A stretch of DNA of 41,288 bases from NCBI GenBank assembly GCA_964634525.1, contig CAZWLI010000018.1, positions 1 through 41,288 on the forward strand, given 5' to 3'. Source of the stretch: an uncultured Candidatus Peribacteria bacterium. Its GTDB lineage: Bacteria > Patescibacteriota > Gracilibacteria > JAUYGZ01. Shown piece after piece: positions 8,445 to 31,798 of the stretch. How positions within the stretch are numbered: the stretch's first letter is position 1; the number at the start of each line of letters is the position of its first letter. The notes under the pieces were generated by a model, which saw only the letters and a program-made list of their open reading frames with translations, ran no database searches and was not told the DNA's origin. The translations under genes and the position numbers were made by a program.

Positions 8445-9476
8445 ATGTCAATTAAACGCCCACCTCTCGACTCATCTGCAGAAACAAAGGGTGAATCATC
8501 ATTCGATAGCCTCAGAGAATTTTTCAGAGGATGTCTTCTCGGTGGAGCCGTAGGCGATGCTCTGGGAATGCCAACGGAAAGAGGCCCCTCATTGCAAGCA
8601 GGACAAACCATTGAAGAAGTATTTGGAGGACGGGTTACAACATACGAATCCAGTCCTAATCCAGCTTTTGGATTAGAAGCAGGGCATTATACGGATGACA
8701 CCCAAATGACGATTGCTGTAGCTGAAATACTTATCAAAGGCCGAGGAGCTTTTGACAAACAAATGTTCTTTCAAAAACTGCTTCGCATGGCAGAAGCTGA
8801 GGAATTCCGAACGATTGGCCCCACGCTCGCCAGGGTCATTAAAAGCATCGTTCGCCAGGGTATCGAAGCGACTCTTCAGCAGAATGTGAGAGGTACTTAT
8901 CCAAGTAATGGAGCTGCCATGCGAACAGCGCCGGTTGCTCTCCTGTATTACTGGGATTTAGAAAAATTAAGAGAAGTAACGATACAAGTAGCAGAGTCAA
9001 CTCATGCCAATCCTTCATCTCTTGCTGGAGCCTGTGCTATTTCTTTTATGATTGCCACTCTGATCAGGGAAAAAGGAAAAATAATTGATGCGATAGCATT
9101 TCGAGAGGGACTTGTATCTTTTATTACCCCCATTGATCCAGCTCTCGCTTCAATGATCAAAGAACAAAGACAAGGTCATGGTAATGAATGCTCAGTGGAA
9201 GATACGATTCCAGAAATCGTAAATCGTTTTTTAGAAAACCCAAATGATTTTCGATCTGGAGTCCTGGACGAAGTAAATTCAGATGGTGATACCGATACAA
9301 AAGCATCTTTAATAGGACAACTCTTGGGAATTAAAAACGGCGTATCAGCAATCCCAAAAGAATATTTGGAAGGCCTCGAGAATGGAGAAAAAGGGAGGGA
9401 TTATCTTCAAAAGCTTGCCGATCAATTGCTTGAATTATCGGCTATTCTTCAAAAAGGAGCGGGAGAGACGACGTAA
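8445..9476 (+). CDS. ADP-ribosylglycohydrolase family protein (DraG/ARH-like), 343 aa
   Basis: Family hallmarks are present: LLGGAVGDALGMPTE near the N-terminus, HYTDDTQMTIAVAE, and GDTDTKASLIGQLLG near the C-terminus (the metal-binding Asp/Thr motifs). Confidence 0.9.
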   Translation: MSIKRPPLDSSAETKGESSFDSLREFFRGCLLGGAVGDALGMPTERGPSLQAGQTIEEVFGGRVTTYESSPNPAFGLEAGHYTDDTQMTIAVAEILIKGRGAFDKQMFFQKLLRMAEAEEFRTIGPTLARVIKSIVRQGIEATLQQNVRGTYPSNGAAMRTAPVALLYYWDLEKLREVTIQVAESTHANPSSLAGACAISFMIATLIREKGKIIDAIAFREGLVSFITPIDPALASMIKEQRQGHGNECSVEDTIPEIVNRFLENPNDFRSGVLDEVNSDGDTDTKASLIGQLLGIKNGVSAIPKEYLEGLENGEKGRDYLQKLADQLLELSAILQKGAGETT

Positions 9477-9805
9477 TCGGAAAGCTCCAAAATTGACTGA
9501 ATTGCCTCCAGGAGCTTATGAAGAGGGGCAATTGCCCATTTTATTATTGCAGTCTTTTCTGATTTCCCAGTTGCTGGATTATGAAAATACAGACAAAATC
9601 CCGAATCCTCTGAATGAGCATCAATCAAATACCGTACTTGTCGGACCATATCATGACCAGGAAATCTTTCAGAATTTTGAAGGATAGTAAATATCAAATG
9701 ACACTCGGCATCAAGAGTAAGGCGAATCCTGGCCCCATCTTTTTCAATAACGAGAGCTTTACAGGGTTCTCTTTCGATGCCGCCATCATGAGATTGCTCA
9801 GACAT
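9449..9805 (-). CDS. Small hypothetical protein (118 aa from MSEQSHDGG...), translationally coupled to the 3822-aa gene
   Basis: The ATG at 9805-9803 overlaps the TGA stop (9800-9798) of the giant gene as ATGTCTGA. The track ORF extends to 9856, but that extension lies inside the giant CDS. The 3' end overlaps the convergent ARH gene by 28 nt. Confidence 0.5.
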   Translation of the reverse strand: MSEQSHDGGIEREPCKALVIEKDGARIRLTLDAECHLIFTILQNSERFPGHDMVRQVRYLIDAHSEDSGFCLYFHNPATGKSEKTAIIKWAIAPLHKLLEAIQSILELSDYVVSPAPF

Positions 9806-12800
9806 AAGGAGTGATGAAAGATTTTGAGAGAAACGAAAATGAAGGCTGGAGAGCATCCACCAATTGTCTTATGGATGGGATAAAGGATGTTGGGGAAGAA
9901 GGAAGTTGGTCGACTCTTTGGAAAAGGTTATTCCATGGAACTCGATTGGACAAAGTATGCTGATCGGGAAGCGGAACAGTTCGAAGAATTTCAAAATCCT
10001 CATCACTGACGTTCTTACGACTCACAGACTTTTTTATCCTGCTGACAGCCAGATTAAGCTGCTCTTCTCGAGTATCTGAATTCCTGGTGAGAACATCAAG
10101 AGAGGCCTTATAGCTTTCCATGAAGGCGTCCCGAATCGGACTATTTCCCATTGCGAGAAGCACTGATTCGAAAGAATGCACTTTGATACTAGCATGAGGA
10201 TATTTTTCCCCAAGCATTTCTTTTACCGATGCGACTTTTTCAGCCGGTACAAAGACTTCAGCAGGAGGAAAAGGTAAGGTCATACTTCCATCCTGGAAAT
10301 GATCGGGCAGAGTAGCCTCTGCAGCCAACGGTCCTATTTTTTGTCGGTCATGCATAATTTTCACTGGAATTTGTTGAGATTTTCCAGGGTCCAATTGCAG
10401 TCCGATGATAACACCAAAAGGAAGCTCTTCTGCACCTCCCTTGACTTTCTTTCTTTCTGCGATTAAAGCATCAAGCGTTTGTTTCTCTCGCTGAAGCTCT
10501 TTCAGGAAATCATTTGGTGATGAAGCCATCAATTTTCTTGAGAGATCAGAGCCAACTTGTAAAAAATTATCAATAAGAATCCTCGTCCGAAGAGACCGAG
10601 CTTCCAATTGGGCGGTAGTCAAAAGTCTTGGTTCGAATACGGTTTGTTTGACCTGGGCGTAGGCAAAAGCAGTGCCTGCACCAGCCTCTCCCAAGCCAAC
10701 AAATAAATTCGGACTGGCAGCTTGTCCGCCAAACTTTGCCCCCTCTCCACCTTCCGGATTCAGACCTGCTTCCTGAAGTGTTTTTGCGGATTTCAATGCT
10801 CCTTCACGAAGTATTCCTTGCAAAGCAACGGAATTCGTCCCATGGCTTACGATGGGAAAAAATGCTGATTCTGATTGGACATATTGCAGAGCTTCCTCAA
10901 GGATTGAGACTAATTGAGTATCTTGCTGAACTCGAGCTGCCTGAAGCTTTTTTCTTAAGGTCTGAGTAAGTTCCTGGCGTTCGCGGGGGGAGATTTTGGT
11001 CGTCACCAATCGACCTTGTTCGACATTGGCATGATTATACATATTTTCTTCGAGAGCTCTCAACTCAGCATCTGGCAGAAATTCCATGCCCCTTGATAAG
11101 GCTCTTACTTTTTTGAAAGCCGTTTGAACTTTTTCTCTGACGGTAAAATACCGCAAATTTTTATCCATTTGTCGTAAATTCCATAAATCTTGCTGTTGCA
11201 CACCTTTTATATCTCCTTCCACAAATCCCTCAAGGATATCGAGATCTTCAGGATTTTTTTCAAATGCTTTTCCTACCCTTTCATACGTATGCGCAGCAAT
11301 TTGTGGACGAGATGGATCGGGAAGCAATTTAGCATTTCCTTCTCCGTACAACGCAAGATTACTGACCGCGTCATGGTACTTGATCAGCCGAATGATGCGC
11401 TCCGCTTCTGCTTCAGAAAATCCTAATTTTTGCAGACTTCCATCTGAAAGAAGCCGCTCAGCTTCATGCAAAGGATGCGCTGGATCTGGACTGATTTTTC
11501 CTTTTTTTCGCTGATCCAATGTTCCGGTTTCTTTTGCCATATCATGAAGAAGCGCAACCATATGAGCTATTCGTTGATCAGCTTTTGAGAGAGACTGATA
11601 TTTTTTTGTCTTCCTCATTTCAAAAAGAACCTTAATCATATGAACCCCGAGCTTATAATCATGAAAGGCGTGCTGGTAAGCTCCTTCGCCGATAAGCTTT
11701 TGCCATTCTGGAAAGAACTGTGAAAATTCTGCCGTAAATCCTTTTACGAATGCGTCAAAATGTGATGTTTCTTCTTTGCTTCGCCCAGCATAAGCAATCA
11801 ATTTAAGAACGCTATCAATATCTTCAGGACCTGTATCCATTTCCAAGAATCCTTCCAACTGTGTTCTTTTTTCGGGAGCCAGAAGACGATCGAGTTCAGC
11901 TTCCAAAGTGTGCAAGCGATCCACCGCAGCTTGCTGATGACGAGTAAAGCCCTCGATATCGGCAATGGTCTCGCCTTCTATAAGTCGGCGCTCAAATTCG
12001 GCAACTTCTGCTTTGGCTTTTGCGATTTCTTTCTCTAAAGTCGCTCGATTCTCTTCAGCCACGGTATCACCGCCCCTCGTCCTCCTTCCCCCATCAGCAT
12101 GTTCTCGATACCTCTGAACACCATCGTAGGCTTCCTTCGCATGAGATAGTTTCCAGAAGTTTGCAACGTCAATGCCACCCTGTGCAAGCGCTGCTTCAAA
12201 TTCAAGACTCTTTTCGATCAAACCAACCCTTCGAAGACCGAAATAGGTTGCGATCATTTCATCTGCCACTTCAGCATTCATCTCGGGGTGTTCCTTGAAA
12301 AGTGCTTCCACCGGATCCTGACCGGCAGCGACCGTGACGCCCAAATTTGCTGCCAACGCCTCCAAAAATGTTCGAGCATTCGGGTCAAGGTTCCGAAGAA
12401 GTGTTTTTTTCAGGGCCGAGTAGCCATCACTGAGCTTACTGATGACCAGAGCTCTCTTCTCCGCCGACAATTGATTGAAGGTTCGATGGACGTTTTCATG
12501 AGTGAGGAGTTCTCGATAAATACTCACCCATGAACGTTCGGGATGGAATTCACGATACGATCGAATACCTTCGATGTTGAAGATAATGGTTCCATCCTTC
12601 TTCACAAAAGCCAGTTCATGTGCCAAGCCCCTACCGGATTCATCTTGCGTTTGCTCATCGATAAACTGATCTCTTGTCTTTCCTTGTACTTTGGGGTCCT
12701 TTCTGCTTACAAGATCATCATAGACAAGACCCAAATACGTAAAGGCATCTTCAGCTTTCACTTGTTTTCTTCCTTCCGGCATACCTCGAATCAGAGAAGA

Positions 12801-31174: not shown

Positions 31175-31180
31175 GAAAAA

Positions 31181-31690
31181 TTAAGGTTTCGTTTTGGGAA
31201 CCCAATCGATCTTGTAGCTGAAATGATAAATCTCTCCCTTCGTCATTGATTCCGGAGCTTCGGTGATGGTGACCACCGGAGCAAGATTGATCTTGCAGGT
31301 GGCGGAGCAGTAGCCATCCGGGCCATTGTTCGGACCATCATCACATTCCTCATTGGCTTCCATCGTGCCATTTCCGCAAACGGGTGCGGAAGCTGTCGGA
31401 ACCGGTGTTGGTGGTGAATCAGAGGCAGGAGCCAGAGCTGCGGGAGCCGGTTCAGCCGTAACTGCTGCTGTCTCCGGTGGAGGGGTCGTCGGAGCTGGGG
31501 CTACCTCTGGAGCTGGGATTGTCTCTGGAGCTGGAGCTGTTTCCGGCGCTGCAGGAGGAGCGCTTTGGCCTGCGTCAAAATCGCCCTTGAGCCGTTTGAG
31601 ATTGAACTTTTGTAATCCAAAAAAGGTAGACCCACCAATGCCAACAAGGAGGATGATGAGAATGGCAATCCACTGTTTTTTACTCAGCAT
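31181..31690 (-). CDS. Small membrane-anchored protein with a Pro/Ala-rich linker and one Cys-rich repeat (CGNG...EECDDG...C...C type)
   Basis: I prefer the ATG at 31690 (MLSKKQWIAILIILLVGIGG). The motif CGNGTMEANEECDDGPNNGPDGYCSATCK matches the Myxococcus-type cysteine-rich repeat pattern. The gene ends 6 nt before the start of the 2660-aa gene. Confidence 0.7.
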   Translation of the reverse strand: MLSKKQWIAILIILLVGIGGSTFFGLQKFNLKRLKGDFDAGQSAPPAAPETAPAPETIPAPEVAPAPTTPPPETAAVTAEPAPAALAPASDSPPTPVPTASAPVCGNGTMEANEECDDGPNNGPDGYCSATCKINLAPVVTITEAPESMTKGEIYHFSYKIDWVPKTKP

Positions 31691-31798
31691 AATGAGAGAT
31701 ACTCTGTGCTCCACTGTAGCAAAAAAAATCATTCACTCATTCAGCATTAAATCTCTGTTTGGATGATTTTGCTTGCGCTTTAAAAAAGATAGTTTACT

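Follow-up and report, generated by a model that had tools for sequence, protein, structure and literature searches.

Layout of the locus and its anchored proteins

The window, a contig of 41,288 nucleotides, carries on its minus strand five co-directional ORFs, here called A to E (Table 1). The ORF listing reproduced the packed arrangement claimed in the initial annotation exactly, in ORF sizes and in all four junctions: with the starts of Table 1, gaps of 6, 7 and 1 nt separate A/B, B/C and C/D, and D and E overlap by 8 nt. The public NCBI record of this contig contains four proteins identical to the A to D products, whereas ORF E is absent from public gene calls. Chance cannot produce ORFs as long as 8 and 11.5 kb, and homologues of B, C and D exist elsewhere. 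For the five products, the only Pfam and NCBIfam matches were two protein-kinase domains, both in D, and a TIGR02232 Cys-rich repeat in A. In the upstream direction the run of like-oriented genes extends to an RmlD-like gene, across a gap of 66 nt, and beyond it, two genes upstream, to an AbiEii gene. At the other end, a convergent ADP-ribosylglycohydrolase (ARH) gene shares 28 nt with the 3' end of E.

Table 1. Genes of the locus and features of protein D, in positions of the window
Feature	Size or residues	Position	Strand	ORF extent (start used)	Description
Gene A	183 aa	31181..31732	minus	31181-31732	Hydrophobic helix at the N-terminus, then a linker rich in Pro/Ala and a single acidic Cys-rich repeat
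Gene B	2660 aa	23192..31174	minus	23192-31174	N-terminal anchor, Cys-rich
Gene C	638 aa	21268..23184	minus	21268-23283 (ATG 23184)	N-terminal anchor
Gene D	3822 aa	9798..21266	minus	9798-21401 (ATG 21266)	Giant modular protein
D segment 1	26-55	21102..21191	minus		Signal anchor; strongly basic N-terminus before it
D inter-segment region	56-665	19272..21101	minus		Family-conserved, between both hydrophobic segments
D segment 2	667-690	19197..19268	minus		KD 1.46; acidic before, strongly basic after
D HExxH module 1	~1040-1320	17307..18149	minus		HEFGH at 1188 and downstream E; closes family-conserved N-terminal region
D Hanks-type kinase 1	1555-1839	15750..16604	minus		GxGxxG, VIK, DLKPAN, DLG
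D HExxH module 2	2042-2361	14184..15143	minus		HENTH at 2140
D Hanks-type kinase 2	~2362-2598	13473..14183	minus		GEGGFG, AIK, DLKPQN, DIG
D HExxH module 3	2844-3105	11952..12737	minus		HENVH at 2923
D HD-superfamily phosphohydrolase domain	3178-3378	11133..11735	minus		Homology to HD proteins
D C-terminal effector-type domain	3424-3719	10110..10997	minus		Unnamed family, alignment A2
ORF E	118 aa	9449..9805	minus	9449-9856 (ATG 9805)	Overlaps D stop by 8 nt; no helix, no homologue found
ADP-ribosylglycohydrolase gene		8445..9476	plus		DraG/Tri1-like; PF03747 E 2.8e-55

A single N-terminal helix had been proposed for each of the first four proteins. A, B, C and D indeed each open with one strong hydrophobic segment (Kyte-Doolittle, KD, 1.9-2.4), which E does not, but "single" is probably wrong for D because of its second segment, strongly hydrophobic in the D homologues. 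The helix of A spans residues 22-40 (KD 2.43), and its repeat scored 31.7 bits against the TIGR02232 cut-off of 20.8, with DUF4215 below cut-off. Protein B contains 47 Cys: those of the N-terminal half are paired, and many in the C-terminal half, where coiled coils are also found, are invariant; alignment A8 holds 23 invariant Cys. Profile searches detected no known domain in B or C and the PDB matches of B were coiled-coil only; B looks like an adhesin- or fibre-like protein.

Conservation of the B-C-D trio

The neighbourhood was compared with two other loci, L002 (a Candidatus Altimarinota MAG) and L004 (a JGI metagenome contig), in which B-like, C-like and D-like genes keep the same order and tight spacing. 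Both contigs end inside the B-like gene, so the comparison reaches from B to the gene behind D. The synteny covers three loci only, this one included. The homologues of B are the upstream giants of L002 (E 5e-29) and L004 (E 1.6e-45). Protein C corresponds in position and sequence to the 721-aa and 559-aa genes that elsewhere separate the B-like gene from the D-like one (C vs C2, BLAST E 2.7e-7; C2 vs C3, E 3.7e-41; C against C2+C3 by hhalign, probability 96.7%, E 4.4e-10, 339 columns). The relatives belong to CPR/Patescibacteria, as had been guessed. The proposed five-gene unit held for B, C and D and failed for E, which has no counterpart after D2 and D3. Judged from sequence, the conserved unit is the B-C-D trio of CPR-type bacteria and not the five-gene set, since conservation is established for B, C and D and not for A or E. 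D2 and D3 are each followed by a different gene (E2 and E3) that these two loci have in common, at 53% identity, and that bears no relation to E; the gene behind D changes together with the D C-terminus.

This limited conservation, with three loci offering context, would also suit large lineage-specific CPR surface proteins, co-transcribed for a common export or envelope location, with D enzymes working on the cell's own envelope or being relics. Many uncharacterised giant membrane proteins are indeed known in CPR and other host-dependent bacteria (PMC8080830, PMC11573180). However, the B-C-D order is kept although the proteins share only 20-30% identity between loci, which favours selection acting on the gene order, and the kinases, GGDEF domains and HExxH modules retain intact catalytic motifs. 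We consider it improbable that no dedicated system is involved.

Architecture of the giant protein D

The D family comprises proteins of 3800-5800 aa (the other members having 4792, 3981, 5266 and 5776 aa). They share ~1300 aa at the N-terminus, in which two hydrophobic segments lie (alignment A1), followed by a variable part with 2-4 Hanks kinases per member, GGDEF domains in four, and an HD domain plus a domain known from toxin positions in D only. Each enzyme unit is preceded by a module with an invariant HExxH...E. Polymorphic toxins show this pattern of a constant N-terminal part and reshuffled C-terminal domains.

The HExxH and downstream E are invariant in 10/10 module copies. The model of D module 3 is mostly helical (pLDDT 80); Foldseek returned no match for this model, and profile searches tied the module to no peptidase. 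The kinases were recognised by PF00069 (65.3 bits for the whole protein, two stretches) and both retain their catalytic motifs, as the GGDEF members retain GGEEF. The HD domain gave dozens of matches (E 1e-20 to 1e-10) to proteins carrying Pfam HD (PF01966), whose profile fails to reach D directly. Domain searches found no nuclease, lipase or cell-wall hydrolase in any family member. A kinase-based anti-phage protein such as PD-T4-6, MADS Mad6 or PglW could also be considered, as PADLOC models match the D kinases (mad6 4.5e-17, PD-T4-6 6e-14) and the AbiEii toxin gene lies nearby. These matches are confined to the ~50-residue catalytic loop that all Hanks kinases share, and no further MADS, BREX or PD-T4-6 component is present. 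AbiEii is missing from what can be seen of L002 and L004, and those defence systems offer no counterpart to the membrane anchors, the 2660-aa Cys-rich partner or the conserved B-C-D order. A defence locus is therefore poorly supported and, in our view, very improbable.

The cysteines of D are unevenly placed: 4/6 lie in residues 56-665 and none past residue 758, while the four homologues have none past hydrophobic segment 2. Altogether, the five members have 2 Cys in the ~19,500 residues after segment 2, compared with 0.4-2% in other proteins of the contig and 0.9-1.4% in its other cytoplasmic proteins; at 0.9%, zero Cys in the 3064 residues of D past 758 has a Poisson probability of 1e-12. 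Segment 2, kept in 5/5 members (KD 1.8-1.9 in the homologues), is preceded by acidic residues and followed by a charge of +6 to +8, and could be either a second transmembrane helix or part of a membrane-insertion region. A third comparable stretch lies at 866-884.

Together with the basic N-terminus, these charges satisfy the positive-inside rule for an N-in, loop-out, C-in topology. D might accordingly be a signalling hub or a giant receptor that crosses the membrane twice, with residues 56-665 outside sensing host contact, B, C and A as surface partners, and an array of ~3100 residues in its own cytoplasm. The output would be phosphorylation, nucleotide second-messenger turnover (GGDEF/HD) and reversible ADP-ribosylation, erased by the neighbouring DraG-like hydrolase; DraG itself removes the modification in a regulatory ADP-ribosylation cycle. 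The homologues' cysteines, all before segment 2, would mark a compartment boundary, the recognised domains (kinases, intact GGEEF cyclases, HD) are ATP/GTP-needing signalling enzymes, and a long coiled coil is seen by eye behind the membrane region. Such a layout (TM1, outer domain, TM2, enzyme) would be that of sensor histidine kinases and membrane GGDEF cyclases, but D is ten-fold larger and, where they have a histidine kinase, carries Hanks kinases in tandem. Such a receptor would leave the near-total exclusion of Cys from cytoplasmic residues unexplained, and 3-4 peptidase-motif modules and a domain from a toxin position would be odd parts for it. Moreover, domain searches of the family found no PAS, GAF, HAMP or receiver domains, segment 2 of D is only moderately hydrophobic, and the stretch at 866-884 would flip the topology. 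This is a serious rival and the main one, which we hold to be less likely than the reading preferred below.

The C-terminal domain of D (~300 aa), present in D alone among family members, contains the motifs [FY]HG[TS]xS, GEG, GxGTxxAYA, PxxFEF and LxGEA. Its homologues sit behind eCIS_core (PF13699), the position of toxin cargo, in P0145 and P0112, and the one in P0046 adjoins a weak match to the T6SS Tse3_N. No PDB or Pfam profile matched the domain. The best PDB match of its model (pLDDT 79.6) by Foldseek was DarT, which was not significant (E 1.5, probability 0.2), and comparison with Tpt1/KptA gave E 0.07-0.16. From its motifs, we suspect an H-Y-E ADP-ribosyltransferase (ART). The ARH gene adjoins the sole D-family member with this ART-like domain and is probably functionally linked to it; none was found within 2 kb behind D3 (L004). 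The product of the ARH gene matched TIGR02662 (4e-25) and NF041672 (1.5e-18), both under the equivalog cut-offs. Of the six frames, that of ORF E has the highest codon score (0.092, a value inside the span of accepted genes here), making a real gene plausible; E is a candidate immunity or partner gene of the D C-terminal domain, if a gene at all.

Known systems and a proposed mode of action

No component of the locus shows hallmarks of RTX/MARTX, Rhs or CDI in Pfam, NCBIfam and motif checks, and the locus is not one of these systems. The MARTX toxins of Vibrio and relatives are single polypeptides of 3500-5300 aa with a variable effector array, a built-in protease that frees the effectors, and few cysteines. 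D resembles them as a single giant with few Cys, an effector array differing between homologues and a putative built-in protease. However, it has no RTX GGxGxD repeats, cysteine protease domain (CPD) or adjacent type I secretion genes; its N-terminus carries a Sec-type anchor where MARTX toxins have a C-terminal T1SS signal, a repeated HExxH module is the putative protease in place of one CPD, and its hosts would be bacteria, not animals.

With polymorphic toxins (CDI/CdiA, Rhs, eCIS cargo with eCIS_core/DUF4157), the D family shares the conserved N-terminus and variable enzymatic C-terminus, the downstream small gene that changes along with the latter and, for eCIS cargo, the last domain. D differs in having no TPS/FHA, YD, PAAR, LXG or eCIS_core domains and in carrying its enzymes in series rather than one at the tip; the immunity role of E is putative. 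Tre1-Tri1 and DraT-DraG each pair an ADP-ribosyltransferase with an ARH-fold hydrolase. The locus resembles them in the adjoining DraG/Tri1-like hydrolase gene and in the HGT / GxGxxAYA / GEA motifs of the last domain, which follow the same beta-alpha order as in H-Y-E transferases. Here, however, the transferase is only suspected, and the hydrolase is far under both equivalog cut-offs and convergent to D, without co-transcription. The giants of predatory or episymbiotic bacteria (Vampirococcus lugosii, Omnitrophota) likewise belong to host-dependent ultra-small bacteria, are N-terminally anchored, presumably serve attachment and, as at this locus, have type IV pilus / T2SS-like genes in the vicinity (PMC8080830; 10.1101/2023.11.21.568195). 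They are described as having adhesion or carbohydrate-active domains, numerous TM segments and SecA-like domains and as reaching 85,000 aa, which sets them apart from the kinase/GGDEF/HD array of D.

Our preferred reading, held tentatively and at somewhat less than even confidence, is that D is exported as a multi-effector polyprotein and has adhesins as partners. Sec would insert A to D through their N-terminal helices, and B, with C and perhaps A, would form a disulfide-stabilised surface fibre binding the host cell. The N-terminal part of D would remain with or insert into a membrane, and its cysteine-free C-terminal ~3100 residues, a polyprotein-type effector battery, would enter the partner cell unfolded. 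The HExxH modules could act as releasing peptidases, freeing the kinases and the HD/ART-like unit; the kinases would then phosphorylate host proteins, HD would hydrolyse a nucleotide and the last domain would ADP-ribosylate a target, the producer being shielded by the neighbouring cytoplasmic ADP-ribosylhydrolase and possibly by E.

Export is favoured by the B-C-D synteny, tight spacing and homology of C and B, by the polymorphic-toxin pattern with the last domain behind eCIS_core, by the invariant modules before the enzyme units and Cys exclusion, and by the hydrolase beside the ART-like member, the co-varying downstream gene and the kept kinase motifs. Against it count the few loci, the segment 2 charges that fit an array in the producer cytoplasm, the kinase, GGDEF and HD domains as classic cytoplasmic signalling outputs, the unproven ART identity, the HExxH modules without a peptidase match and the missing record of E; moreover, Pfam and NCBIfam recognised no domain for secretion, trafficking or translocation, and the genes have no known delivery machine beside them. 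Of the effector-delivery module originally proposed, an effector role of D fits the last domain being common to eCIS_core-fused proteins, and delivery is what we infer. The trio may be a means by which ultra-small CPR bacteria act on host cells.

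Organization of the locus

The five minus-strand ORFs A to E had been described as a tightly packed operon whose first four products each start with a single hydrophobic helix. On the sequence, the claimed junctions were confirmed as gaps of 6, 7 and 1 nt followed by an overlap of 8 nt. An N-terminal hydrophobic helix was present in A, B, C and D, but "single" probably does not hold for D, which carries a further, weaker stretch within the protein. Hydropathy analysis revealed no such helix in ORF E. The window is a complete NCBI contig of 41,288 bp, whose public record contains proteins identical to A-D and lacks E. 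Codon usage in E's own frame was the best of the six and reached a level like that of the small accepted genes of the contig.

Features of the locus, of protein D (residue numbers) and of the genes following D in related loci
Feature	Position	Strand	Length	Remark
Gene A	31181-31732	minus	183 aa	
Gene B	23192-31174	minus	2660 aa	adhesin-like giant
Gene C	21268-23184	minus	638 aa	anchored protein
Gene D	9798-21266	minus	3822 aa	multi-enzyme giant
ORF E	9449-9805	minus	118 aa	
D, hydrophobic anchor	26-55			after a very basic N-terminus
D, family-conserved region	56-665			
D, second hydrophobic stretch	667-690			most conserved sequence of the family
D, amphipathic Gly/Ala-rich region and long coiled coil	to ~1040			by eye
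D, HExxH module 1	~1040-1320			HEFGH at 1188
D, kinase 1	1555-1839			
D, HExxH module 2	2042-2361			
D, kinase 2	~2362-2598			
D, HExxH module 3	2844-3105			
D, putative HD domain	3178-3378			
D, C-terminal domain	3424-3719			
E2 (locus L002)	23341-23762			follows D-like gene
E3 (locus L004)	21395-22408		337 aa	follows D-like gene

Pfam and NCBIfam matches across A-E were restricted to two protein-kinase domains in D (PF00069) and one Cys-rich repeat in A (residues 117-148; TIGR02232, myxo_disulf_rpt; 31.7 bits against a curated cut-off of 20.8). No Shine-Dalgarno-like purine run was found in the 40 nt upstream of B, C, D and E (31175-31214, 23185-23224, 21267-21306 and 9806-9845), and translation of B-E may proceed by coupling or by leaderless/A-rich initiation. 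Since TGA ends 9 of the 22 ORFs, the window uses the standard genetic code and the UGA = Gly code found in Gracilibacteria was rejected; read-through at the D stop would add 13 residues only.

The flanking ORFs encode SLH-domain proteins, an ADP-ribosylglycohydrolase (ARH), an RmlD-like protein, an AbiEii protein, a BT1 transporter and pilus components. One flank encodes two proteins with SLH domains, one of them 1131 aa long (5-733 and 1915-5310, plus strand); on the opposite flank is a type IV pilus cluster comprising two prepilins and a PilC/T2SS-F protein (36276-38704, minus strand). Upstream of A and in the same direction are the RmlD-like reductase gene (31799-32677, minus strand) and then the gene for an AbiEii-type nucleotidyltransferase toxin (32670-33374, minus strand), which overlaps the start of the former by 8 nt; in the window, no AbiEi antitoxin partner was identified. 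The G+C content is 0.42-0.47 across the operon (8000-31000) versus 0.49-0.53 in both flanks, which could reflect either Lys/Asn/Ser/Asp-rich proteins or a foreign origin.

A conserved trio of genes

An exhaustive HMMER search with D residues 2844-3822 retrieved three giants, P0010 (4792 aa), P0011 (5266 aa) and P0023 (5776 aa). In BLAST, their N-terminal ~1300 residues aligned collinearly with those of D, and kinase and HExxH modules were common to all beyond this region (for example, D 211-1839 vs. P0010 361-2131, E 2e-122). Searching with an alignment of the N-terminal region of D (A1) yielded L002, which belongs to a MAG of Candidatus Altimarinota in the Patescibacteria group (contig JBFWVJ010000001.1, 209431-233192), L003, a Peribacteria fragment, and L004, part of a JGI metagenome (contig Ga0079224_100001130). 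GTDB genomes scanned with D as a single protein gave no match; the alignment-based scan then gave two loci.

Gene order was alike in L002 and L004, with a giant upstream gene, a gene of 721 or 559 aa and a D-like gene (4792 or 3981 aa), separated by gaps of 17-42 nt. Both loci stop inside the B-like gene, short of where an A-like gene would lie, the upstream giants being truncated by the locus end at lengths of at least 2223 and 2554 aa. These matched the C-terminal half of B (E 5e-29 and 1.6e-45), with 23 invariant cysteines common to them and B. The two middle genes were homologous to each other (E 3.7e-41) and to C (hhalign, 96.7%, E 4.4e-10), with the C-terminal motif CxQTExG..V[IV]DD...CQ in common. 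Given the order and the homology of all three genes, B-C-D is a conserved trio. The proposed five-gene unit thus survived in part: B-C-D is kept in L002 and L004, but E is replaced there by a different gene, without known domain and unrelated to E, whose two copies are 53% identical to each other (E 2e-33). The feature is real and conserved, with B-C-D as its core and E, the hydrolase and perhaps A as probable lineage-specific additions. That the locus holds unrelated surface proteins that are merely co-transcribed seems to us quite unlikely.

All seven complete genes of L002 and L004 end in TAA or TAG, and in-frame TGA is absent from the ~23 kb of giant ORFs in each. The Altimarinota (Gracilibacteria) label predicts UGA = Gly, and the genes are compatible with the presence or absence of recoding.

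Searches of other kinds returned little. In a word-indexed protein search, gene C alone retrieved only itself, and queries of 1100-1200 residues (D 1-1200 and A1) came back empty; the latter negatives were discarded as evidence of orphan status because D itself, present in the collection, was missed. PDB sequence and profile searches with D, B, A1 and the alignments of the D C-terminal domain (A2), the HExxH module (A3) and the B family (A8) recovered kinases and coiled coils only. Viral-contig scans with A1 and A7 gave no match, B had no internal repeats, and an exact look-up of the window proteins for longer contigs produced just a 2.4-kb Logan fragment; gene C is present in Logan run ERR3478687. 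Neither the trio B-C-D nor the family of D, with its kinase, GGDEF and HD domains, was found described in the literature.

Enzyme array and C-terminal domain of D

The kinases of D scored 65.3 bits against PF00069 (cut-off 31.7) in two stretches. Both contain the GxGxxG Gly loop, the Lys of AxK, DxKxxN and DxG, and both are non-RD, with FND or IND in place of HRD. In the HExxH modules, H80, E81, H84 and E160 were invariant in 10 copies from five proteins, the Glu lying ~76 residues downstream. An HExxH motif with a downstream Glu as third ligand is the gluzincin-type zincin ligand set, which these modules appear to possess, judging from the aligned residues. Searches of PDB profiles and Pfam identified no peptidase, and neither a zincin fold nor a zincin family was recovered. 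The model of module 3 was mostly helical (pLDDT 80) and had no Foldseek match in the PDB at E < 0.6. Comparison by hhalign with the eCIS_core region of the related protein P0145 revealed similarity limited to the HExxH motif.

The HD assignment of D is transitive. Pfam returned no HD domain in D at E <= 0.1; residues 3178-3378 matched dozens of proteins (E to 4.5e-20), with PF01966 present in 6 of the 10 checked, and the motif LLHDMAKE is visible in the region. In the D homologues, kinases number from two to four, and HD gives way to GGEEF cyclase domains that are intact. The D family proved free of recognisable nuclease, lipase and wall-hydrolase domains, as well as of PAS, GAF and receiver domains. 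By eye, P0011 (~4560-4600) and P0023 (~5330-5370) display a segment FGS...(x)...DIDLAT/DIDIAT on which Pfam is silent; it resembles a Pol-beta-type nucleotidyltransferase motif and would add a nucleotide-handling enzyme to these arrays.

Cysteines were distributed very unevenly. D has six, none beyond residue 758, and in the D-like proteins of L002 and L004, P0011 and P0023 all are upstream of the second hydrophobic segment. Although the five D-family proteins share just 22-47% identity, their enzyme arrays, ~19,500 residues altogether, have two cysteines between them. The rest of the contig's proteins, cytoplasmic ones included, have 0.4-2% Cys, and B and its counterparts in L002 and L004 have 47, 35 and 47 cysteines, respectively. 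At 0.9%, the Poisson probability of zero cysteines in the C-terminal 3064 residues of D is near 1e-12. The second hydrophobic segment (Kyte-Doolittle 1.46 in D and 1.8-1.9 in homologues) therefore truly separates two regions under different selection.

The two hydrophobic segments could also make D a giant two-pass receptor. The charges around both fit an N-in, loop-out, C-in arrangement, and kinase, GGDEF and HD domains are typical cytoplasmic outputs. Such a receptor would nonetheless leave the cysteine exclusion, the HExxH modules and the C-terminal domain of eCIS type unexplained, and we rate it second, as less likely than not. An anti-phage defence system is rated far lower, as very improbable indeed, because the PADLOC matches were only to the generic kinase loop.

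The C-terminal domain belongs to an unnamed family of ~20 representative proteins. Two of them, P0145 and P0112, have eCIS_core (PF13699) at the N-terminus and the D-type domain at the C-terminus, an arrangement known from toxin cargo of contractile injection systems; other fusions are to annexin repeats (P0081) and an HD domain (P0049). The family alignment displays the motifs [FY]HG[TS]xS, GEG, GxGTxxAYA, PxxFEF and LxGEA plus a late Glu, with G53, G106, G108, T109, A112 and Y113 invariant, E227 near-invariant and H52 in most sequences; in D, H52 and E227 correspond to H3475 and E3650. In the AlphaFold model (pLDDT 79.6), six strands are arranged in an order compatible with the split beta-sheet of ADP-ribosyltransferases (ARTs). 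On this model, the motifs sit on a strand-helix pattern resembling that of H-Y-E ARTs, and the conserved residues may, purely by analogy, have the ART catalytic roles. The top PDB match by Foldseek was DarT (7yk3_A; E 1.5, probability 0.20, TM 0.34/0.43), which is not significant. Foldseek against BFVD and PDB profile searches with the alignment gave nothing, the Tpt1/KptA Pfam match was weak (E 0.07-0.16), and a Pfam scan of 16 family members at E <= 10 gave no recurrent family. Since this fold evidence is not significant, we keep ART identity as a hypothesis with roughly even chances.

The adjoining ARH gene (8445-9476, plus strand) supports the ART hypothesis. It is convergent and overlaps the 3' end of E by 28 nt. 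Its product is a hydrolase of ARH fold, matching PF03747 over its full length (E 2.8e-55), with DraG and Tri1 as closest families at scores below the equivalog cut-offs of both. These families undo arginine ADP-ribosylation, and Tri1 doubles as toxin immunity. In L004, where the D-like protein is without this C-terminal domain, no ARH gene was found within 2 kb downstream. ORF E, a candidate for the cognate immunity gene that polymorphic toxins carry directly downstream, overlaps the D stop and is unlike E2/E3, the genes that go with the other C-terminus type (two types in all, E being absent from the record). Strong divergent promoter-like sites were also observed by the ARH gene, at 8397-8451.

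Comparison with known systems and possible functions

The initial annotation knew no described system of this composition, and the comparison agreed: the hallmark features of RTX/MARTX, Rhs and CDI loci were all missing. In A-E, the RTX motif GG.G.D was absent and there was no RTX/HemolysinCabind Pfam match. Pfam found no MARTX-type cysteine protease domain in D, and the flanking ORFs included no type I secretion genes. A-E gave no Pfam/NCBIfam match to YD repeats, the Rhs core, PAAR or VgrG and no YD-type motif, and neither A-E nor the flanks contained a detectable TPS domain, FHA repeats or CdiB gene. The locus would work most like MARTX and polymorphic toxins, yet it lacks the MARTX features. 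With polymorphic toxins as generally defined, the D family shares a conserved N-terminus (~1300 residues collinear in five proteins) with differing arrays and ends, and a C-terminal domain common to another delivery class (the eCIS_core proteins).

The giant genes of Omnitrophota reportedly encode >30,000 aa, with numerous TM regions and a divergent SecA DEAD helicase domain. B (2660 aa) and D (3822 aa) differ from these: neither matched SecA, and hydrophobic segments number just one or two. Lineages of Peregrinibacteria type have many huge proteins that are uncharacterised (PMC11573180). For Vampirococcus and Omnitrophota, the literature reports giant anchored proteins in the vicinity of type IV pilus genes (PMC8080830; 10.1101/2023.11.21.568195), and in Omnitrophota giant genes beside pilus or T2SS-like genes have been noted; a pilus/T2SS-like cluster also lies near the giant genes of the window.

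Tentatively, at a little under an even chance, we read D as an exported effector battery with B and C as partners. An array without cysteine would suit cargo that needs to remain unfolded and disulfide-free outside the cell; the HExxH modules would free the enzymes; attachment would fall to B and C, perhaps together with A; and the ARH hydrolase, perhaps with E, would shield the producer. This accounts for the cysteine exclusion, the modules with a peptidase motif, the domain in toxin position, the reshuffling of C-termini and the downstream gene that changes with them; the locus has no recognised delivery device. A bolder proposal, to our minds unlikely as a whole, is that B-C-D forms a new host-manipulation apparatus of Gracilibacteria/Peregrinibacteria-type CPR. 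The disulfide-rich giant adhesin would dock the cell, and the cysteine-free, Sec-exported D would thread into the bacterial host and cut itself at its repeated HExxH modules. The parts set free there, namely Ser/Thr kinases, nucleotide enzymes of the diguanylate cyclase or HD kind and the ART-like domain, would rewire host signalling. Effector delivery and signalling both fit the locus.

The locus extends the theme of giant modular surface/effector proteins. CPR/Patescibacteria account for much of bacterial diversity, and the locus bears on the means by which such cells attach to their hosts and control them. Judged from its sequence, the locus is a concrete, conserved candidate, which appears to combine an adhesin-like giant with a giant chaining active-looking kinases, nucleotide-signalling enzymes and a domain in toxin position. 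Its sequence is sharply marked by the near-absolute exclusion of cysteine beyond a conserved hydrophobic segment, and the new HExxH module, the new effector domain family common to contractile-injection cargo and the adjoining ADP-ribosylhydrolase are separable parts. If D is a receptor, no bacterial family of signalling receptors so far would be larger, and D would be a candidate sensor of host contact. If it is an exported effector battery, the locus would provide a new way of delivering effectors between bacteria. Should it act in host manipulation, it would be the first system for effector translocation to be described in Patescibacteria and a counterpart of MARTX for bacterial hosts.
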